From positions 9,319 to 73,318 of the forward strand of contig CBIHOC010000024.1 of NCBI GenBank assembly GCA_966211705.1: a stretch of 64,000 nucleotides of DNA, read 5' to 3'. The position numbers were made by a program, and so were the translations under genes. This document shows positions 16,799 to 46,945 of the stretch, in pieces. The notes under the pieces are model-generated. The model was not told where the DNA came from, ran no database searches, and was given only the letters and a program-made list of their open reading frames with translations. Numbering within the stretch: position 1 is the stretch's first letter; every line of letters starts with the position of its first letter. The DNA comes from an uncultured Chryseobacterium sp. (GTDB taxonomy: Bacteria > Bacteroidota > Bacteroidia > Palsa-965).

Positions 16799-18382
16799 TC
16801 ACATCTCTCCCGCTTCCGCTTTCTCTTCCACGATCTCACGGAACGCTTTGTTCTTCAGCTTGCTTTCGGCCCATGCGGGAAAGTCGAAATATTCGAACGC
16901 GGTTTTTTCGAACGGGTCCTGCTCGAGCTTCTGTAAATTTTCAAACAGCTCGGCGTAAAGCGGTGCGATCGCTTTTACATCGTCCGTTTTCGAAATTTTT
17001 TCGGCGAAGCGCAGGAACACGTTCTCGAACTGGTATGCGCGGTTCCTCGTTTTCAGGTAGCGCTGCACCGAACGCCCGACATACGGCAGCAGGTCGCGGT
17101 GGTCGAGCTCGATGTGCAGGATGAGCGCAAACACCTGCGCCACGGCGAAGATCCACTCGTTCTGCCCGACGCCGGGGTCGTTCACCAGGCGCGTGGTCCA
17201 GCGCAGCGCTTCGTGAAATTTCCCCGCGCCGTAATAGGCCACGGCCACGCTGATGCAGAAATGCGCCTCGCGCAGCTTGCTGAGCCGCCCCTCGAACCGC
17301 GTCAGCCCTTCCACGATCTTCGGCACGAGCGCCATCGCTTTGTCGAAATGCCCGATGGAGTTGTACAGCGTCAGCTCAAGGCTGTAGGCGCTGGAGAAAA
17401 GCTTGATCTCGAGGTCTTCGTTGCGCGCGGTGTCGAGCTTTTCGGGGAGCGCGCGCAGCTTGCTGAGGTATTTCAGCACCTCGCTGTAGCGCTTGAGGCG
17501 GCTGCACACGTAGATGAGATTGGTGAGCACGCCGAAATAAACGTTGGGCTCGTCGCGGAAAATTTCCGTATTCGCTTCGATGAGCAGCACGTTGGCGGCG
17601 AGGTGAGCATGGCAGCGTTCGGCATCGGCGATGGCGAAGTAATACGCGCTGTATGTGTGGTGGTAAAGGAAACGCGCGTTCACGCTCATGCCGTCCAGCG
17701 CCCGGTCCTTCAGCGACGCGTCGATAAGGTGGCGGAATTCGTCGAGCTCGCCGGATGCGCGGGCGCGGCCTTTGGTGTTGAGTATCAGGAAAAGGCGGCT
17801 CTTCACGTTCCACAGCTCGTTATAAACGCGGATATCTTCGGCCACTTTCCGGTCCTGCCCGAGCACGCGCACGATGCTTTCGTCGGTCATGCCGGCGTAG
17901 CTGTCTTTTTCCGCAAGCGCTTTTTCCATCTCGTGGATCTGCACCAGCACTGCATGCTTCTCGTATTTTTCCGCCAGCTTTTTCGCGCTGCGCAACCGTT
18001 TTGCGCATTGATCGTACAGCGTTTTTTTGTACAGGATCTCCGCGTAATGCAGCTCTTTCCACAGCTGCGCATCGATCGAACTGTTGTGGTGGAACACGTC
18101 GAGGCTGCGCAGGATCGTTTCGAAGAGGCGCGATTTGGTAATGCTGAGATTGTTGAGCAATGCTTCGCCTGCAAATTTTTTCAGGAGAACATCTTCATCG
18201 TACGCCGCCATTTTTTCGATCGCGTCGAACAGCGCCACGTACGTATTCTGCTCACCGATCGTGTGCCTGCCGGCGAAGATCTTGAAATGCCTTTTTTCCT
18301 GCTTGGTGAGCGAGTTGATCAGGCGGTGGAGCTGGTCGGAAGATTTGCCGGACATGTATAAAGATCGGATATGTTTGTGCAC
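16799..18382 (-). CDS. Hypothetical helical, TPR-like protein
   Basis: 527-aa ORF with no signal peptide and no recognised catalytic motif. Alternative start MSGKSS at 18355. Confidence 0.5.
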   Translation of the reverse strand: MHKHIRSLYMSGKSSDQLHRLINSLTKQEKRHFKIFAGRHTIGEQNTYVALFDAIEKMAAYDEDVLLKKFAGEALLNNLSITKSRLFETILRSLDVFHHNSSIDAQLWKELHYAEILYKKTLYDQCAKRLRSAKKLAEKYEKHAVLVQIHEMEKALAEKDSYAGMTDESIVRVLGQDRKVAEDIRVYNELWNVKSRLFLILNTKGRARASGELDEFRHLIDASLKDRALDGMSVNARFLYHHTYSAYYFAIADAERCHAHLAANVLLIEANTEIFRDEPNVYFGVLTNLIYVCSRLKRYSEVLKYLSKLRALPEKLDTARNEDLEIKLFSSAYSLELTLYNSIGHFDKAMALVPKIVEGLTRFEGRLSKLREAHFCISVAVAYYGAGKFHEALRWTTRLVNDPGVGQNEWIFAVAQVFALILHIELDHRDLLPYVGRSVQRYLKTRNRAYQFENVFLRFAEKISKTDDVKAIAPLYAELFENLQKLEQDPFEKTAFEYFDFPAWAESKLKNKAFREIVEEKAEAGEM

Positions 18383-18935
18383 CCCGGGAGAAGCGCGGCT
18401 GTATCTTCGACGCAGGCCGGGTGAAAAATTCCTTCGCGGGATGCAGCCTTTGTGTTCCTTTGTAGTAAAGGGTTCTATGAAATAGTGATTTTTTCGTTTA
18501 CAATGAAGTTAGACTTATTCCAACTGAATGTCAAGAATGAACGTCAGCCCGGCGGCCGGATAATATTGCTTTGGACATGTTAAAAGATGGCAGAAGTGTG
18601 AAAATCAGCTGGAGCTGTTGGATATGCAATACGCAAATTGCTGATTAGTAGTAAATTGTAAAAAATAATGCGATAAAATTCCCATGTTGACATGTTTAAA
18701 ACCGTCTTACTCTGGTTTGATAACCGTTTACAGCGGGAATAGCTTTGTCACGTATTGGTAAATTTCATGCGATCCGCCGAGGGGTCCGGTTCAATGGGGA
18801 TGTTGGCCGGGCCCCCGGCAATCGCGGAAAAAAAGCGGAGCACGTCTCCGAACCTGTTCATCTCCTTTGCCGCTCAGCGGGCCATCGCATCTTTTCGGAA
18901 ATTTCTTCGCCACGGAACTGCTATCTTTATAATTC

Positions 18936-21929
18936 ATGTTCCGCGGAAAGGCCCCTGATCCTTCTTTTCTACGCCTGTTGCGTGCTGCGCTGATATTCCT
19001 GGTGTTTGCGCCCCGGATTTCTTTTGCCCAGTCGCTCAACTTCCGCAACTATTCCGTCGACGACGGGCTGCCGTTCGTGCAGGTGTTCACCATTTTCCAG
19101 GACAGCAAAGGTTATCTCTGGTCGGGCGGTTACGGCGGACTGAGCCGCTTCGACGGGCGCACGTTCACCAACTTTTCTCCCAGCAACGGCGGACTTCCGA
19201 ACCACTGGGTCACATCGATCACCGAAGACAGCCGCGGCGATCTCTGGGTGGGAACGATCGAGGGCGCATCACGTTATTCAGAAGGCGTTTTCACGAACTA
19301 TTCCGAAAAAGACGGGTTGCCGAGCGAGTATGTGAATTGCCTCCTCCGCGACGAGCGCGACATGCTCTGGTTCGGAACTGCGAAAGGACTTTGCCGCTAC
19401 GACGGCCAGAAATTTTCCGGCATGGGCGACGACGGCCCGGGAAAAGCTTCCGTGCTTTGCTTTTTCCAGGAGCCGAACACCGGGCGCATCTGGATGGGCA
19501 CGTCGAGGGGCGTGTACAAATACGAGAACCATGCATTCACGCATTACCCGTTTTCTCCGTTCCTCGACAGCACGGTGACAGCGATCACGCGCGATGCGGA
19601 AGGACACATCATCGCCGGGACTGCCGACGGGCTTTTCCGTTTCGGGAACGGGCACTTCGAGCTGATGCTTACGCCGCCGGGCTTCGAAATGCCTGCCGTT
19701 GCCGATCTCGTGAGCGATCGCTTCGGGATGACATGGATCGCCGCCGATAACGGGTTGTTTTCTTTCGACGGGAAAAATTTCAGGCAGTACGACGTGTCGG
19801 GAGTTGTCGGCGCAAATTCCATCATCAGCCTGTACGTCGACTACGAAGGCAGCCTGTGGCTGGGCACGCATGCGGGGCTGTTCCGTTACCGCGGGGAAGG
19901 ATTTATCAGCTACACGGTGAAGGACGGGCTGGAAAGTAATTTCGTTTTCGGCATCACCGAAGACCGCGCGGGCACATTGTGGGTATGCACGGAAACGAAC
20001 GGCGTGTACCGCTACGATGGGAAAACGTTTTCTTCACTTGCAAAAAAAGAGGGGCTTGCTTCCGACGAATCGAACGCATGTATGTTGCTGCCGGACGGCG
20101 ACGTGCTGGTCGGAACAGACAACGGGCTGAGCCGGATTACGGAAAAAGGGAAGATCACGAATTTCCGCCGCGCCGACGGGTTGCATTCCGATTCGGTCAA
20201 CTGCATGCTGCGCGATCATCGCGGGCGTGTGTGGCTGGGCGGGGGAAAGGGACTGACCTTGTATGAAGAGGACGGAACGTTTACGCAGTTCATCATCCCG
20301 TCGGGCCCCGAAGAAAGTTTCGATGTCTGGTATTTGCACGAGGACCGCCGCGGCACGATCTGGGTGGGAACGTACAATGGCGGGCTCTATACGTTCGACG
20401 GGAAAACATTTACGGACGCCGATGCGCAGCTGGGCATGATGGCCGATTCGTATTTCTCGATCTGCGAAGACAGGCGCGGAAAACTTTACTTCGGCACGCT
20501 CGACGGCGTCTTTATTTACGACCCGCACAGCACAGGCGGCAAAGCCGTCGACCGGCTCAGCGAGTCGGACGGCATGAGCTCCGAGCTCGTGTATTGCATG
20601 ATCATCGACAACCCCGGGCGCTACCTGTGGATCGGCACCAACCAGGGCCTGGCCCGTTTCGACATCGAAACGTACAACAAGAGCGGGAGCAAGATCGTTT
20701 CCACGTACGGGAAGGAAGAAGGATTTACAGGCGTGGAAACGAATTCGAACGGCGCCTACATCGACCGCCGCGGCATGATCTGGTTCGGAACGGTGAACGG
20801 GCTCGTGCGTTATTCCGAAAAAGATTTCCGTCACAACCCTGCGTATGCGAAAACGAGCATCACCGGTGTCCGCCTGTTTTACAACAAAGACCATCTTCCG
20901 CCCGACGTGGAGCTCGAGTACGACATGAACAACGTGTCGTTCGAATACGTCGGCATCTGCCTCACCAACCCGGCCAAGGTGCGTTACCAATACATGCTCG
21001 CGGGTTTCGACACGGGCTGGTCGCCTCCGACTGCCGATCGCGTGGCGCGTTATTCCAACCTCCCGCCCGGCACGTACACGTTTAAGGTGATCAGCTGCAA
21101 CAACGAAGGCTTGTGGAACCCCGAGCCGGTCACGTATTCCTTTACGATCAACACGCCGGTATGGAAACGCCCGTGGTTCTGGCTTTTGCTGACGGGTGTT
21201 TCCGTGCTCATCCTCAGCCTTGCGATCGTTTACCGCATCCGCCAGATCAAGAAGAAAGAGCGCATCGAGACCGAAGCCCAGGTGGCGATGGCGCGGAACG
21301 AGCTGAAAGCGCTGCGCGCACAGATGAACCCGCACTTCGTATTCAACTCGCTCAATTCCATCCAGCATTTTATCCTCACCAACAAATCTGCCGACGCCGG
21401 GAAATACCTCAACAAGTTTGCCCGCCTCATGCGCGTGATCCTGAACAATTCCGAAAAATCCCTCATCACCATCCGCGAAGAGCTCGAATATTTACAACTG
21501 TACCTCGAGCTGGAGGAGATGCGCTTCGAAGGAAAGTTCAGCTGGTCGGTGGATGTCAGCAAGGACATCGACATGGATTATTTCGAGATCCCGGCGATGC
21601 TGCTGCAGCCTTACGTGGAGAATGCGATCCTGCACGGGCTGATGCCGAAGAGCGGGGGCGGGAAATTGCAGATCGTCATGCGCCTGCAGGGGAACACGAT
21701 CGTGTGCAGCATCATCGACGACGGCATCGGGCGGGAGAAGGCGTGGGAGATGCGCCAGCTTTCCAAGCGCAAGGACCACCAGTCGCTGGGGATGAAGATC
21801 ACGCACGACCGCCTCGAGCTGATCAATCGCCTGCACGGCTCGCAGCTGAGCCTTACAATTACCGATCTTTACGCTGAAGACGGTTCTGCCGCCGGCACCC
21901 GTGTTGATATATTCATACCCGTTTCCTAA
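18936..21929 (+). CDS. Sensor histidine kinase with a two-component-regulator beta-propeller (Y_Y_Y) periplasmic domain, one TM segment, and LytS/YehU-type His_kinase + HATPase_c
   Basis: Repeated DG(L/F)...GLxRFDG propeller blades. TM WFWLLLTGVSVLILSLAIVY. MNPHFVFNSLNSIQHFI matches the His_kinase PF06580 family. C-terminal ATPase. 997 aa. Confidence 0.85.
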   Translation: MFRGKAPDPSFLRLLRAALIFLVFAPRISFAQSLNFRNYSVDDGLPFVQVFTIFQDSKGYLWSGGYGGLSRFDGRTFTNFSPSNGGLPNHWVTSITEDSRGDLWVGTIEGASRYSEGVFTNYSEKDGLPSEYVNCLLRDERDMLWFGTAKGLCRYDGQKFSGMGDDGPGKASVLCFFQEPNTGRIWMGTSRGVYKYENHAFTHYPFSPFLDSTVTAITRDAEGHIIAGTADGLFRFGNGHFELMLTPPGFEMPAVADLVSDRFGMTWIAADNGLFSFDGKNFRQYDVSGVVGANSIISLYVDYEGSLWLGTHAGLFRYRGEGFISYTVKDGLESNFVFGITEDRAGTLWVCTETNGVYRYDGKTFSSLAKKEGLASDESNACMLLPDGDVLVGTDNGLSRITEKGKITNFRRADGLHSDSVNCMLRDHRGRVWLGGGKGLTLYEEDGTFTQFIIPSGPEESFDVWYLHEDRRGTIWVGTYNGGLYTFDGKTFTDADAQLGMMADSYFSICEDRRGKLYFGTLDGVFIYDPHSTGGKAVDRLSESDGMSSELVYCMIIDNPGRYLWIGTNQGLARFDIETYNKSGSKIVSTYGKEEGFTGVETNSNGAYIDRRGMIWFGTVNGLVRYSEKDFRHNPAYAKTSITGVRLFYNKDHLPPDVELEYDMNNVSFEYVGICLTNPAKVRYQYMLAGFDTGWSPPTADRVARYSNLPPGTYTFKVISCNNEGLWNPEPVTYSFTINTPVWKRPWFWLLLTGVSVLILSLAIVYRIRQIKKKERIETEAQVAMARNELKALRAQMNPHFVFNSLNSIQHFILTNKSADAGKYLNKFARLMRVILNNSEKSLITIREELEYLQLYLELEEMRFEGKFSWSVDVSKDIDMDYFEIPAMLLQPYVENAILHGLMPKSGGGKLQIVMRLQGNTIVCSIIDDGIGREKAWEMRQLSKRKDHQSLGMKITHDRLELINRLHGSQLSLTITDLYAEDGSAAGTRVDIFIPVS

Positions 21930-21963: not shown

Positions 21964-22713
21964 ATGATCAATGCTGTAATTGTTGAAGATGAAAAGAAAA
22001 GCCGCGAAGTGCTCGAGGCGCTGGTAAAAACCAACTGCCCCGAAGTGAACCTCGTCGGCAGCGCGGATTCCGTGGCCGGCGGCGTTGATCTCATCCGCAA
22101 AACCAATCCCCGCCTCGTGTTCCTCGACATCGAGATGGCCGACGGCAGCGGGTTCGACCTGCTCGAGCAGGTGCCCAACACCGGCTTCGAGGTGATCTTC
22201 ACCACCGCTTCCGACGCGCATGCCCTGCGCGCCATCAAGTACAGCGCGATCGATTATCTCCTCAAGCCGATCGACGCCGACGAGCTGAAAGCGGCGGTGG
22301 AAAAGATCAAAACCAGGCAGACGGTAAACGAGAACCTCGAAAATCTGAAATTCCTCCTGCAGAATTTCCGCCGCCCGAACGAGCAGTACACCAAGATCAC
22401 GCTGCCCACCGGGAATGCATACGAGATCGTGAATGTGAAAGACATCATCCGCTGCGAAGCCGACGGCAGCTACACGAGCTTCTTCCTCGAGAACAAAAAG
22501 AAGCTGCTCGTTTCCGCCAGCCTCAAGCATTACGAGGATCTTCTCCCGCCCGACGATTTTATCCGCGTGCACCATCACCACCTCATCAACATGAGCCACG
22601 TCGTACGTTTCCTGAAAACCGACGGAGGCTACGCCGTGATGAGCGACGGCACACAGATCGAAATTTCCCGCCGCAAAAAAGACGCATTCATCCAGCGGCT
22701 GAATAAGATCTGA
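21964..22713 (+). CDS. LytTR-family DNA-binding response regulator
   Basis: Receiver INAVIVEDEKKSREVL...VFLDIEMADGSGFDLL plus a C-terminal LytTR domain. 249 aa, adjacent to its kinase. Confidence 0.9.
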   Translation: MINAVIVEDEKKSREVLEALVKTNCPEVNLVGSADSVAGGVDLIRKTNPRLVFLDIEMADGSGFDLLEQVPNTGFEVIFTTASDAHALRAIKYSAIDYLLKPIDADELKAAVEKIKTRQTVNENLENLKFLLQNFRRPNEQYTKITLPTGNAYEIVNVKDIIRCEADGSYTSFFLENKKKLLVSASLKHYEDLLPPDDFIRVHHHHLINMSHVVRFLKTDGGYAVMSDGTQIEISRRKKDAFIQRLNKI

Positions 22714-22771
22714 AATTCAAAGATTCAAACGTCTCGTCATGCATGACGAGACTATTCAAAGATTCAAAGAT

Positions 22772-22803
22772 TCGGATTGGCTGAGGTCAATCCGATTTTT
22801 TTT
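22772..22803 (+). terminator. Rho-independent terminator (tcggattggctgaggtcaatccga followed by TTTTTTTT)
   Basis: GC-rich hairpin plus T-run 60 nt downstream of the LytTR stop. It lies inside a larger palindromic block (22717-22890) built from ttcaaagattcaaa words and the perfect palindrome gtctcgtcatgcatgacgagac. Confidence 0.6.
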
Positions 22804-23321
22804 GCCCTGTCGCGATACTATTTGAATTTTGAATCTTTGAATAACAAGGCTCGTCGGAGACGAGACGAGTGATTGAATTTTTGAATTCGTGACACTTCTC
22901 TGACAATACGCGCTTCAGGAAAACTCCGCTCATCCGGCGCTTTCGCCACTTATACCAATTTCGTTTCCGGTTACCGCATGCGCTCAGCCACCTGTTAAAA
23001 GTGACTATCCTTTCCGTGTTTACAAGCGTAATATTGAATGGAAATCAGCTACAGGAATAGAATACGCTGATCGACAGGAAATCCGCTCATTGAAAAGCTG
23101 CTTTAAAAAAGAAAAGAGAAAAAGGCCCTGAGCCTTTGGGGTGCAACCGGATAGCTGACGTATTCGGGGATGTTGCGTCTACCGTTCGGTTCACCCTGCT
23201 CTTTCTTTCAAAATAATTCTGTAACGAAATCCAGCTGCGACGTTATAGAACAAAGAAGGAAGTCCGCTCTTCGGCAAGCAACGCGGGCAGTGAAGTCAAA
23301 ACCCCTATAAAATTGAGTGCC

Positions 23322-23439
23322 ATGAAAAAGGTAACCCATCGGAAAGGCCACCAGTATCACATCGACGGCCTCGGCACCATCAGCATCATTTTCGGAATTG
23401 CATGCGTTGGTTTTATTATCTATAATGTTTGTCATGTGA
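23322..23439 (+). CDS. Candidate 39-aa small protein (MKKVTHRKGHQYHIDGLGTISIIFGIACVGFIIYNVCHV) with a hydrophobic C-terminal helix
   Basis: Below the ORF-track threshold. ATG..TGA is in frame and is followed 20 nt later by a hairpin + TTTT terminator. No homology assessable. Confidence 0.3.
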
Positions 23440-23460
23440 TTTTTTCCTGAGTGTGTGTGG

Positions 23461-23504
23461 AACCCCGGTCCTGTTTTTAACCCCAAGGGACCGGGGTTTT
23501 CTAA
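23461..23504 (+). terminator. Hairpin aaccccggtcc...ggaccgggg + tttt
   Basis: Perfect 9-bp GC stem followed by a T-run, downstream of the candidate small ORF. Confidence 0.5.
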
Positions 23505-23546
23505 AAAGTAACTCCAGGTTGCGCTGCAGCCGTCTCAATAAGAATG

Positions 23547-23573
23547 ACCCGTCCCGTAAGACGGGTTTTTTTC
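23547..23573 (+). terminator. Rho-independent terminator acccgtcccgtaagacgggt + ttttttt
   Basis: Classic stem-loop with a T7 run, 45 nt upstream of the next gene. Confidence 0.55.
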
Positions 23574-23619
23574 TTCGGAACAGCACAATGTATCCATCAT
23601 CCACTTGTTTACCTGACCT

Positions 23620-25299
23620 ATGAAAAGAACGCTACTCTCTATTACCGTGGTTGCTATTTGCGGAACACTGAACGCACAAACCTGGGTCACCGCCTCCCTC
23701 GACATCAACGGCGTAAGCGCCATGGCTGTTTCCAACGGTGATTTGTTCTGGGATTATACGAACACGCAGTTCGAAGTGCCGAAAGGCAATCAAACCTCCA
23801 CCATCTTCGCCGGCGCATTATGGGTCGGCGGACTCGACACGTCCGGCCAGCTGCACCTCGGCGCGCAAACGTACCGCCAGTCCGGCAACGACTTTTATCC
23901 CGGCCCTGTCATGAACCCTGCGAATTATTCCGCCGCCAACGATGCGCTGTGGAACAAGGTGTGGAAGGTGAACAAGTCTACGATCGACAGCTTCCGTCTT
24001 GGGCTTTTCACCTCCACACCTCCCGTGATCCTCGACTGGCCGGGCAACGGCGATGTGTCGCAGGGACAGGCTGCGCAGCTCGCGCCGTATGTCGACGTGG
24101 ATGCCGACGGCGTGTACGATCCATCTGCAGGCGATTATCCTTGCATCAAAGGCGACCAGGCGGTGTTCGTGATCTTCAACGATGACCGCAACACGCACAC
24201 GGAAACCGGCGGACAAAAGCTCGGCTTCGAATTTCATGCGATGTTGTATGCGTATAGCGCGCCCGGTTCCTGGCTCGACAGCGCCGTGTTCCTCAATTAC
24301 AAAATGTACAACCGCTCGGGCCGTGATTACTCCGACGCGTACATCGGCTCGTGGACGGATTTCGACATCGGCGCTTACGATGATGATTACATCGGCTGCG
24401 ATGTAACGCGGAACATTTATTATGGTTACAACGGAGATGTGAACGACGGTAGTTCGCCGTTCGCCACAATCGGGACGTACGGTGCAAATCCGCCGGCGCA
24501 GGGCGTCGTGTTCCTTCGCGGACCGGTTGCGGACCCCGGGGACGGTGTCGATAACAATCATGACGGACTTATCGACGAGGCAGGTGAAGTGTGGCTGATG
24601 AGCAAATTTGTTTCTTACAACAACGACTTCACCGTCACCGGGAATCCCGTCACCGCATGGGATTACCACAAGTACATGTCGGGTCGTTGGAAAGATAGCA
24701 TTCCTGTCACTTACGGCGGTACAGGTTATGGCGGATCTCCCCCATGCGATTACATGTTCCCCGGCACCAGCGACCCGCTCGCCTGGGGAACGAACGGCAT
24801 GCCGCAACCGCCGTGGGATGAGGCGAGCGCCGGCAATACGCCGTTCGATCGTCGTGGTTTTGCCGCTTCGGGTCCGTTTACCATCACGGCGGGACAAGTC
24901 ATGTGCGTGGATTATGCCTACGTCTACGCACGCGGAAACGCGGGGCCACTGTCGAGCGTAGCGGCGATACAAAACTTTTCAGACAGCGCGCGTGCGTTTT
25001 ACGGCACAACTTCACCCTGCACATGCGTAACTTATCCGCTGGGTGTCGATGATGACATGCAGGAATTCACCGTTCCTATTTATCCCAATCCTGCGGCCTC
25101 AGCCATCACGGTTACCTGGCAGCCGCAAACCGTCGGCGCAAAGTTGGGGCTTTATGACATGACGGGGCGAATGGTGCACAGCGAAACAATCGTGAAAAAA
25201 GAAACGACGGTGAGCCTGGAAAAATTTCCTGCAGGGATTTACCTGGTTCGTGTCACCGACGGACAACGTACAGGGGTTTCCAAAGTGTTAAAACAGTAG
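23620..25299 (+). CDS. Secreted protein with a T9SS type-A C-terminal sorting domain. The N-terminal domain is uncharacterised.
   Basis: Signal peptide. C-terminus IYPNPAASAITV...GLYDMTGRMVHSETIVKKETTVSLEKFPAGIYLVRVTDGQRTGVSKVLK is the TIGR04183-type Por secretion tail. 559 aa. Confidence 0.8.
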   Translation: MKRTLLSITVVAICGTLNAQTWVTASLDINGVSAMAVSNGDLFWDYTNTQFEVPKGNQTSTIFAGALWVGGLDTSGQLHLGAQTYRQSGNDFYPGPVMNPANYSAANDALWNKVWKVNKSTIDSFRLGLFTSTPPVILDWPGNGDVSQGQAAQLAPYVDVDADGVYDPSAGDYPCIKGDQAVFVIFNDDRNTHTETGGQKLGFEFHAMLYAYSAPGSWLDSAVFLNYKMYNRSGRDYSDAYIGSWTDFDIGAYDDDYIGCDVTRNIYYGYNGDVNDGSSPFATIGTYGANPPAQGVVFLRGPVADPGDGVDNNHDGLIDEAGEVWLMSKFVSYNNDFTVTGNPVTAWDYHKYMSGRWKDSIPVTYGGTGYGGSPPCDYMFPGTSDPLAWGTNGMPQPPWDEASAGNTPFDRRGFAASGPFTITAGQVMCVDYAYVYARGNAGPLSSVAAIQNFSDSARAFYGTTSPCTCVTYPLGVDDDMQEFTVPIYPNPAASAITVTWQPQTVGAKLGLYDMTGRMVHSETIVKKETTVSLEKFPAGIYLVRVTDGQRTGVSKVLKQ

Positions 25300-25353: not shown

Positions 25354-25483
25354 GCGCCCGCCGAAACCGTGGTTGATCAGGGGAGAAGGTTCATCCTCGT
25401 TTTACCCGTGTTGATCGAATTGTATGAACTTCCCCGGCCGGGTGGGCGTATACCTATTAAGTTTCCCCCCAAAGACCCGAAAT

Positions 25484-25735
25484 ATGACAATTGGCGTCCA
25501 GTCAGTAATGATTGAATTCAGGATAGTCGGTAAAGAGATTTTGCTGGACTACGAGCTTGTTACCGAAAAATGCTCCTGGAGTATTTTCGATATCGGGGGA
25601 GTGGAACTGAGCAAAGGATCGCTGGATGGCCCGCCGCCTCACCGGATCTCCGTGGCGCACCTTGCACCGAACGTTTACCAGCTTTGCGTGATCGACGGCG
25701 ACAAGCTGCTCAATTCACGTTTCCGCATCGGCTGA
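25484..25735 (+). CDS. Hypothetical small protein. Weak resemblance to a T9SS CTD tail.
   Basis: 84-aa ORF (track gives 25424..25735). The tail APNVYQLCVIDGDKLLNSRFRIG loosely resembles the GxYxxxVxDG...K end of T9SS sorting domains. Could be a gene remnant. Confidence 0.3.
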   Translation: MTIGVQSVMIEFRIVGKEILLDYELVTEKCSWSIFDIGGVELSKGSLDGPPPHRISVAHLAPNVYQLCVIDGDKLLNSRFRIG

Positions 25736-41925: not shown

Positions 41926-42019
41926 AAATGAAAAAGCAAAACTCAAAACTCCAAATGCCCAAAATGTCGGGCGCTACACGTTTGAGATTTGAACGTTTGA
42001 ATTTTTTGAAATTTCAACT

Positions 42020-46852: not shown

Positions 46853-46870
46853 GCGTAAAAAACCAAAACA

Positions 46871-46917
46871 AAAATTCCAAATCCCAAAGCAGCTGCGATT
46901 TTGGGATTTGGAATTTT
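46871..46917 (+). terminator. Hairpin aaaattccaaatcccaaa-gcagctgcga-ttttgggatttggaatttt downstream of rpoN
   Basis: 18-bp inverted repeat with a T-rich 3' flank, 19 nt after the rpoN stop. A/T-rich stem, so the terminator call is moderate. Confidence 0.5.
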
Positions 46918-46945
46918 GAGCTTTGTATTTTTTTGAGACCTGCTT

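Follow-up and report, generated by a model that had tools for sequence, protein, structure and literature searches.

What lies between a two-component system and the secretion cargo gene behind it, in a place where no long open reading frame (ORF) is to be found? The question is raised by a 64,000-nucleotide stretch of DNA from an uncultured Chryseobacterium sp. (contig CBIHOC010000024.1; hereafter, the window), in which a non-coding island at positions 22714-23619 fills the space between the stop codon of a LytTR response regulator gene and the start of a gene for a cargo protein of the type IX secretion system (T9SS). The original prediction, drawn from the letters of the window alone, was that this island represents an independently transcribed small gene or small RNA (sRNA), not dead space. 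Comparison with related loci (labelled L002-L026) supports that interpretation, because the small ORF is under selection, the unit travels on its own, the promoter keeps a fixed register, a leader RNA shows covariation and the terminators are conserved. Our reading, to which we assign a probability of roughly 60%, is that the island constitutes a compact, separately controlled transcription unit directly behind the two-component system. The small gene within it is probably real and regulated, as far as sequence comparison can tell. In the intergenic alignment, conservation begins at about 22944, extends to about 23210 and resumes just 5' of the ORF start codon to run through both downstream terminators. 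The palindromes that had first attracted notice proved to be the least conserved part of the island, while the segment 22890-23320, seemingly featureless and missed by the prediction, is its most conserved non-coding part.

The small ORF had been described as 39 codons at 23322-23439. It is in fact 42 codons long, opening with an ATG at 23322 on the plus strand and closing with a stop at 23448-23450, and it encodes the 42-aa peptide MKKVTHRKGHQYHIDGLGTISIIFGIACVGFIIYNVCHVIFS. Among 5.8 billion proteins searched were the product itself and three relatives, 42-46 aa long; when 1.84 billion cluster representatives (clustered at 50% identity) were searched with a profile, eight homologues came back, and a profile built from 15 members reached 46 clusters. 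All of these homologues are hypothetical or unannotated and all derive from uncultured Bacteroidia/Bacteroidetes assemblies. Conservation in related genomes had been suggested as a check, and the frame is open and intact in every lineage examined. Pairwise dN/dS values, the ratios of nonsynonymous to synonymous substitution rates, lie between 0.08 and 0.22, with synonymous sites near saturation; differences are biased to the third codon position (for example 9, 3 and 21 at the three positions), and a 12-nt insertion in L005 preserves the frame. A maintained frame, an excess of synonymous change and indels in multiples of three are the marks of a protein-coding small ORF, and on this comparative evidence the ORF is a gene under purifying selection. 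An A-rich stretch at -10 to -15 of its start fits the translation-initiation signals of Bacteroidetes (PMC7366714).

The encoded peptide has a basic, His-rich N-terminus (MKKVTHRKGHQYH) followed by a conserved DGLGT, and Kyte-Doolittle means reach 1.6-2.3 over residues 13-42. From this hydropathy profile, one membrane helix with a cytoplasmic N-terminus is expected, and the peptide is predicted to be a single-pass membrane protein. Searches against Pfam, NCBIfam, PADLOC and the PDB gave no match above noise. In L018 and L019/L020 the small ORF lies intact after the LytTR gene and has nonetheless been left uncalled in the assemblies, so the peptide family is under-counted in protein databases. 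The claim that the island holds no credible long ORF was also correct: the longest is a 92-aa ORF on the minus strand (23208-23486). It was rejected as a gene because it is not conserved and overlaps the selected plus-strand frame, and the same reasons dispose of minus-strand ORFs called in L002, L013 and L020.

The gene order around this peptide is stable, the same kinase, LytTR regulator and T9SS cargo genes being its neighbours almost without exception. In relatives it usually runs kinase, LytTR regulator, small ORF, T9SS cargo, convergent hydrolase and M24 peptidase, an arrangement that persists from 100% to about 68-75% regulator identity. The exceptions are informative as to what belongs with what. 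In L005 the small ORF and its upstream block sit behind a convergent TPR gene instead of the regulator; in L003 the small ORF unit has no full cargo gene after it; and in L013, L024 and L025 the small ORF (48 aa) is located after the cargo gene. Because the small ORF and the upstream block are retained together despite these differing neighbours, they behave as a unit of their own.

A candidate promoter for the unit is found at 22946-23036 (plus strand). With the invariant CGTAATATTG as anchor, 13 related sequences can be aligned there, and over 105 nt upstream of the anchor, with no gap. Three direct boxes, CCACTTAT at 22946, CCGGTTAC at 22967 and CCACCTGTTAA at 22988 (together 22946-22998, plus strand), are candidate LytTR sites. 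Their consensus is CCAgTTAt-N13-CCg..T-N15-CCAccTGttaA, with starts exactly 21 bp apart (alignment positions 23, 44 and 65), and the register is identical in all 13 sequences, the boxes being followed by ctAtCcTT and then by TAATATTG. When the loci were scanned for the three-box pattern, 11 of 12 gave exactly one match, always on the plus strand and upstream of the leader, and shuffled sequence gave none; L003 fails the strict pattern, its middle box reading CCAATTAA. The repeats bound by published LytTR regulators measure 9-11 nt, lie 11-13 nt apart and follow no common consensus (PMC4847170). The 21-bp period of the boxes therefore fits this published geometry, at least two repeats of 9-11 nt lying 11-13 nt apart upstream of a core promoter. 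Given the box geometry, the adjacency of the genes and their co-inheritance, we infer that the boxes are bound by the adjacent LytTR regulator.

For the core promoter itself there is a candidate -7 element, TAATATTG, at 23029-23036 (plus strand), which lies inside CGTAATATTG, matches TAnnTTTG at seven of eight positions and is conserved in all lineages. Promoters of Bacteroidetes consist of such a -7 element, TAnnTTTG, with an optional TTTG at -33 (PMC7366714). We infer a transcription start at about 23042-23045. The promoter of the kinase operon was also inspected for boxes of the LytTR type; all that it offers in the window is a loose 21-bp repeat, GTTTAAAACCG/GTTTGATAACCG, which is not kept in L010, and the candidate was dropped. 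Separately, the sequence A(A/C/G)TCCGCTC(A/T)T occurs three times in the island, 5' of the boxes (22922-22933), in the leader (23079-23090) and in the spacer before the ORF (23260-23271), the copies being 157 and 181 nt apart and the first two common to L002.

Downstream of the predicted start, a conserved leader RNA extends over 23044-23205 (plus strand). It opens with a 5'-proximal hairpin, ATCAGC/GCTGAT (23044-23071, plus strand), whose stem is conserved across lineages around a loop of 11-33 nt; in L019 this stem contains a U-G wobble, which on the opposite strand would be an A-C mismatch. The larger element is a 94-nt three-way-junction motif at 23112-23205 (plus strand), recognized by covariation and by a covariance model. 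Three parts compose it: a closing helix AAAGAG/CTCTTT (as RNA, AAAGAGC/GCUCUUU), a small hairpin AGGC-CCTGA-GCCT, and a long hairpin of about 22 bp at 23139-23197 that ends in the 11-nt loop TTCGGGGATGT at 23163-23173. That loop, UUCGGGGAUGU as RNA, contains a GGGGAUGU core that is invariant in every lineage having the hairpin. The small hairpin varies in an orderly way, as GGC-CCUGA-GCC in most lineages, GGCC-CGAAA-GGCC in L021/L022 and GGRCA-GCAA-UGYCC in L013/L024.

Several observations indicate that these helices form. From an ordinary MAFFT alignment of 11 lineages, RNAalifold recovered the long hairpin unaided, with 11 of 20 pairs showing compensatory change, and the hairpin folds in each lineage separately at -17 to -40 kcal/mol. 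In a structural alignment, with the register set by hand and indels padded with N so that MAFFT kept the columns, 89.2% of cells pair in the full three-part structure, against 40-46% when the partners are slid by 1-3 columns; compensatory changes occur in 19 of the motif's 34 pairs, and none of 500 shuffles reached the observed values. The covariance model scores 52-81 bits on the plus strand across loci and about 15 bits on the minus strand, and the copy in the window scores 77 bits, strand-specifically, with an E-value of about 1e-17. Since the scores are strand-biased and several columns of the motif are dominated by G-U pairs, the functional form is the plus-strand RNA. Scanned with the speed filters off, the window contains one full copy only.

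The element thus has what a structured cis-regulatory RNA generally has, namely compensatory changes, restriction to one strand and a leader position. A riboswitch would be expected to have conserved unpaired nucleotides that build a ligand pocket, together with an expression platform of mutually exclusive folds. Here conservation resides mainly in the apical loop rather than in the junction, and the small-hairpin loop is GCAA or CGAAA in some lineages. An Rfam scan, also proposed as a check in the original prediction, found no family that matches the leader RNA: scans of 22300-24000 and 18350-19000 with E-values up to 10 returned noise only, the best hits (0.6-10) being to unrelated families far below their gathering scores. 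The DNA pattern GCGTAATATTGAANNNNNATCAGC, run against genome and metagenome collections, gave only chance matches in unrelated coding DNA (L006-L009). Three further structural or coding candidates within the leader were discarded. A pairing of GCUCA (23084-23088) with UGAGC, suggested by RNAalifold, is broken without compensation in L010, L016 and L019; an upstream ORF from the AUG inside the GGGGAUGUUG loop would be 3, 16 or 46 codons long according to lineage and is not conserved; and a loop-loop pairing CCUGA/UCGGG between the small and long hairpins, possible in the window, is lost where the small loop is GCAA or CGAAA.

That the motif and the ORF belong to one transcript has to be weighed against the possibility of two genes, in which the 5' part (about 23042-23210) would be a trans-acting sRNA of about 165 nt ending at the long hairpin and the U-rich GCUCUUUCUUUC, and the ORF would have its own start near the ATG. 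Between motif and ORF there are 110-200 nt of poorly conserved sequence, a U-rich sequence follows the motif in most lineages, and its A-run and U-run flanks resemble those of a terminator. The two parts also come apart in places. L013/L024 have the motif without the ORF directly behind it, and L002 has the ORF without the long hairpin, the GGGGAUGU hairpin having been lost there by replacement or deletion of about 100 nt (L002 2600-2700) while the promoter, the small hairpin and an intact ORF (83% identical) were kept. Moreover, a promoter-like TAAAATTG stands 6 nt before the ATG in the window. That box, however, is not conserved (L002, L003, L019, L021) and is better explained as part of the A-rich translation-initiation region. 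Most of the U-run, for its part, is taken up by pairing in the closing helix, and in L016, L021 and L022 the run is short or interrupted; a simple terminator scan makes no call at the site; and in L013/L024 no recognisable promoter separates the motif from the cargo ORF, which lies about 130 nt downstream. Separate genes are accordingly an unlikely arrangement, though one that deserves to be taken seriously.

A hydrophobic 42-aa peptide with one helix behind a long, highly structured leader also invites comparison with type I toxin-antitoxin systems, in which a toxic peptide would be held silent by a folded 5' untranslated region (UTR) together with an antisense RNA. The small hairpin and A-run even read as terminator-like on the minus strand (23137-23121). 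Yet the gene is single-copy within the 64 kb and strictly syntenic with the two-component system across lineages saturated at synonymous sites, whereas such toxins are as a rule patchily distributed and multi-copy. No minus-strand promoter is predicted or conserved in 23200-23500, nor does a promoter-like site appear up to 23600; the G-U pairs and model scores place the structure on the plus strand, and the PADLOC search was without match. No antisense or divergent sRNA overlapping the mRNA, the defining property of the type, was identified, and we regard a toxin-antitoxin function as very improbable.

If one transcript carries both leader and ORF, as we prefer, its end should lie in the terminators that follow. 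Directly 3' of the stop codon comes a GTGTGTGTGG run and then a first terminator (23451-23503, plus strand) with arms at 23461-23471 and 23488-23498 followed by TTTT. The prediction of a hairpin with TTTT behind the ORF was sound as to the element itself (23461-23498, 11-bp perfect arms), but its placement 20 nt downstream was not: as the ORF ends at 23450, the hairpin begins 11 nt past the stop. This first hairpin is kept in every lineage, with stem sequences that differ and a tail that is always U-rich. Beyond it, a module at 23517-23574 (plus strand), also seen in L003, L005, L010, L016 and L019, comprises a short hairpin GGTTGC/GCAGCC (23517-23531), CCGTCTCAATA and a second terminator; the predicted second strong terminator is indeed present, at 23546-23567 followed by T7. 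The sequence after the GGUUGC/GCAGCC hairpin includes a conserved CCGUC..AUA. The positions of both terminators behind the ORF are conserved in relatives, and the sites 22772-22803, 23461-23503 and 23546-23574 each combine a GC-rich hairpin with a U run, as intrinsic terminators do. A terminator-like site on the minus strand (23352-23330) was set aside, as it is not conserved in L002.

Some details of this region stand apart from termination. The GU-repeat run after the stop (23451-23460), present in nearly all lineages, reads GUGUGUGUGG in the window RNA; L002, L010 and L016 deviate slightly from this, L021-L023 have TAAGTGTGTGTGG, and the most distant member sampled, L026, is without it. Though non-coding, the run is conserved in its nucleotides. 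The module at 23517-23574 is kept even in L003, where the cargo gene does not follow, and this module could be a small RNA from the 3' UTR.

The proximity of the terminators to the T9SS gene gives rise to another explanation, in which the leader would be an attenuator or a processive antiterminator that sets the read-through past both terminators into the cargo gene. The cargo ATG lies only 45 nt after the second terminator, and these 45 nt contain no recognisable promoter element, a -7 box included. In L013/L024 the same boxes and motif stand directly 5' of the cargo gene, and the kinase operon has this loop hairpin at its head; in L010, L016 and L019 the first gene of that operon is another cargo gene. 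A switch between folds can also be drawn, as the GCUC segment may pair with AAAGAGC or, alternatively, with GAGCC of the small hairpin. The alternative pairing is possible without being supported by covariation, which does not separate the two folds, and it is lost in L013a/L024a; furthermore, L003 and L010 keep the unit though their full-length cargo gene is absent or reduced. Control of elongation into the cargo gene therefore strikes us as improbable to about the same degree as the two-gene arrangement, and we retain the separately controlled small-gene unit as the better account.

The recurrence of the loop beyond the small ORF merits description in its own right. All loci were searched for GGGGATG and the sites folded; wherever it caps a long hairpin, it does so on the gene strand and within a leader. 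Such GGGGAUG sites are found 5' of the small ORF (in all lineages but L002) and 5' of the kinase operon, and L013, L024 and L025 have a second full motif 5' of the cargo gene, the second copy in L024 carrying similar boxes. In the window, the second hairpin with a GGGGAUGU apex (apex 18796-18803) occupies 18766-18826 (plus strand), some 110 nt before the sensor kinase starts, and folds at -40.8 kcal/mol. It has the form UUCAUGCGAUC...GGUUUCAAUGGGGAUGUUGGCC...AUCGC, simpler than the leader motif, matches the covariance model in part, and is kept in L010, L016/L017, L019, L021 and L023 with a few compensatory changes; a conserved GTATTGGTAAATTTCATGCGATC lies 5' of it. Given these leader positions on kinase, small-ORF and cargo genes, the loop element marks several transcripts of one locus. 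No sequence that could pair with the loop locally (CAUCCCC or ACAUCCC) occurs in the loci. A role as a Shine-Dalgarno mimic was set aside, since the pairing would have an A-C mismatch in its middle; Bacteroidetes in any case make little use of Shine-Dalgarno pairing. We tentatively suggest, as a possibility less likely than not, that GGGGAUGU-loop hairpins, whether alone before the kinase operon or built into a three-way junction, form a new class of leader RNA that marks all transcripts of one LytTR regulon and is read by a putative factor, such as an RRM-type RNA-binding protein, or by RNA polymerase itself as a processive antiterminator.

It remains to account for the palindromes. An AT-rich compound palindrome spans 22714-22888 around the terminator of the LytTR operon and is lineage-specific. 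On its left side are tandem ATTCAAAG units and a GC hairpin containing the perfect 22-nt palindrome GTCTCGTCATGCATGACGAGAC (22731-22752), which was correctly called and is unique in the window, with none expected by chance; on its right are inverted copies of the units and a second hairpin at 22850-22869. The mirrored arms that had been remarked upon are likewise present: ATTCAAAGATTCAAA occurs in five copies at up to two mismatches within 22715-22886 (three on the plus strand, two on the minus), against one other match in the whole window where 0.2 were expected. As predicted, the element encloses a terminator, that of the kinase/LytTR-regulator operon, with a 10-bp stem at 22772-22795 followed by T8 (22772-22803, plus strand). 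As a single strand, 22714-22888 folds into a cruciform or four-way structure at -72.3 kcal/mol (z = -7.2) with this terminator at its centre. L002 and L016 have a terminator of different sequence at the matching place.

The palindrome sequence is absent from the 25 other loci and does not align in relatives. L016 nevertheless reproduces the layout at the same site from other units, two TAGTTCGGAG, a terminator and three inverted CTCCGAACTA, and here (ATTCGGA...) as in L016 (TTCGGAG) the units look like echoes of the terminator stem. AT-rich palindromes also occur between genes at two more places in the window, 41937-42017 and 46870-46919, where they are built of TTCAAA/TCCAAA/CTCAAA units after stop codons, so that 22714-22888 is one of three members of a small dispersed class; the segment 46856-46949 on the minus strand reaches 26 bits with the RNA covariance model, a score owed entirely to its being a long hairpin flanked by A and U. 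The palindrome was rejected as an array of sites for the regulator to bind, since its sequence is not conserved while the regulator is 84-90% identical. It shares with REP (repetitive extragenic palindromic) or BIME (bacterial interspersed mosaic element) sequences and with miniature inverted-repeat transposable elements (MITEs) an AT-rich, intergenic, terminator-associated character, a small dispersed class and fast evolution, and MITE-like too are its 15-nt terminal arms, 93% complementary. Unlike MITEs and REPs, it has no target-site duplication at its ends and no identical copies in the 64 kb, nor were further copies found in the 25 loci. The echo of the terminator stem in the arms suggests local slippage rather than transposition. 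The segment is probably a fast-evolving, terminator-associated repeat class and not a specific regulatory device; possibly, it adds insulation between the regulator operon and the target promoter.

This is also the one part of the island for which the plainest explanation, a non-functional spacer whose palindromes and ORF arose by chance and whose terminators are ordinary, is plausible. The segment 22714-22888 is not conserved and resembles the other dispersed AT-rich palindromes, and Rfam has no match in the island. For 22940-23575 the spacer reading is effectively refuted. The ORF is under purifying selection, the RNA covaries and the promoter geometry is fixed, and the 15-nt TATTCGGGGATGTTG is identical in most lineages, with a GGGGATGTT core invariant in 11 of 11, despite saturation at synonymous sites. 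For the island as a whole we give it scarcely any weight.

The genes on either side are those that had been named. The sensor kinase (18936-21929, plus strand; 997 aa) contains Reg_prop, Y_Y_Y and His_kinase domains, the response regulator (21964-22713, plus strand) Response_reg and LytTR domains, and the cargo protein (23620-25299, plus strand) a Por_Secre_tail domain. The island between them is AT-richer, as stated at the outset, with a GC content of 0.38-0.47 against 0.55-0.63 in the flanking genes; a scan for tRNA and tmRNA found none. After the cargo gene, at 25424-25735, is a 103-aa ORF that belongs to no Pfam family and has positional counterparts of 79-93 aa, of which those in L021 and L022 match Por_Secre_tail; it may be a stand-alone T9SS sorting-domain protein. 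In L024 (5200-5560) and L013 (8850-9050), the small ORF is followed by short hairpins in tandem array that have CCCGTAAGG loops and read GCAGCCCCGTAAGGTTGC...; in L024 they repeat about every 85 nt.

Assembled, these elements suggest how the locus may work. The kinase/LytTR operon ends at the strong terminator 22772-22803 inside the palindromic repeat element, which evolves fast, and the promoter region of the unit begins some 140 nt past it. The Y_Y_Y kinase would phosphorylate the LytTR regulator, which in turn would bind the three boxes and switch on transcription, giving an RNA of about 460 nt if it ends at the first terminator and of about 530 nt if it ends at the second. As the protein output, the peptide would be inserted in the inner membrane; by analogy with other small membrane proteins that two-component systems induce, it would there most likely act on the kinase or on how the T9SS cargo encoded next to it is exported. 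The GGGGAUGU hairpin could serve as a shared post-transcriptional handle that couples the transcripts of the locus, via a putative RNA-binding factor or transcription read-through.

A number of points weigh against this scheme. The box consensus is loose (CCRnnT), and the promoter of the kinase operon does not carry the same boxes. The -7 box matches at only seven of eight positions, and the -33 region, CTATCCTTTC, is weak and without a clean TTTG. The closing helix pairs an A-run with a U-run, which could instead be terminator flanks and would make the 5' part a separate RNA. Because L002 lost the long hairpin and kept the ORF, the motif is not indispensable for the gene. The register of the structural alignment, set in part by hand, leans toward the structure named; the slid controls and the independent RNAalifold run argue against that structure being wholly an artefact of alignment. 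Finally, the relatives are metagenome contigs throughout.

The taxonomic range over which the unit is known is narrow (uncultured Bacteroidia), and its interest lies in what it adds there. For an uncharacterised class of two-component system, Y_Y_Y kinase with LytTR regulator, the locus supplies a candidate promoter as direct target. It also supplies a family of predicted 42-residue membrane peptides that has so far gone unannotated, and an RNA motif, supported by covariation, that appears more than once among the transcripts of the locus. Pfam, NCBIfam and Rfam contain neither the peptide family nor the RNA motif. Post-transcriptional control in Bacteroidota is poorly understood, and the locus bears on it; should the GGGGAUGU-loop class prove true, signal sensing and T9SS cargo secretion would be linked by an additional RNA layer in an uncultured Bacteroidia clade. 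The example also illustrates how gene callers and family databases leave a conserved small gene 'hypothetical' or, as in L018 and L019/L020, uncalled.

How does the unit compare with systems already described? At the level of the loop, the closest likeness is to the GGA-loop hairpins recognized by CsrA/RsmA, whose consensus, obtained by systematic evolution of ligands by exponential enrichment (SELEX), is RUACARGGAUGU (PMC4347634). The apical loop here presents GGAUGU on a short stem, and reads GUACAUGGGGAUGU in L023 and L024. It differs from CsrA targets in having two extra G and in there being one hairpin per RNA rather than many, and surveyed Bacteroidetes genomes contain no CsrA, Hfq or ProQ homologues (bioRxiv 10.1101/2021.04.27.441718). 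The RRM-type RbpB of Bacteroidetes binds the G/U/A-rich GUAGGAUA (bioRxiv 10.1101/2021.04.27.441718). As a reader of the loop, RbpB is a loose lead.

At the level of the whole unit, two kinds of system come to mind. In enterobacteria, small membrane proteins such as MgrB (with PhoQ/PhoP), SafA, PmrR and MgtS are induced by two-component systems and act back on these or on partners in the membrane. Like MgrB, the peptide described here has fewer than 50 residues, one predicted transmembrane helix and a short charged cytoplasmic end, its gene lies beside a two-component system, and its promoter carries candidate sites fitting that system's type of regulator. Unlike these proteins, to none of which it has sequence similarity, it is associated with a regulator of the LytTR and not the OmpR type, and with a long structured leader. 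The other precedent is found in Staphylococcus aureus, where the LytTR regulator AgrA binds direct repeats and drives RNAIII, a structured RNA of 514 nt that encodes the 26-aa hld peptide. Shared with that system are LytTR-type repeats upstream of a promoter beside the regulator operon and a predicted RNA of about 0.5 kb with conserved hairpins, a tiny hydrophobic ORF and a strong terminator. The phyla differ, however; there is no similarity in sequence or structure, the boxes are three rather than two, the unit is co-directional with and downstream of the regulator operon rather than divergent from it, and its peptide is predicted to be a membrane-anchored helix, not a secreted amphipathic toxin like hld. 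Given this lack of homology, the different phylum and the different layout, the unit belongs neither to the MgrB type nor to that of AgrA/RNAIII.

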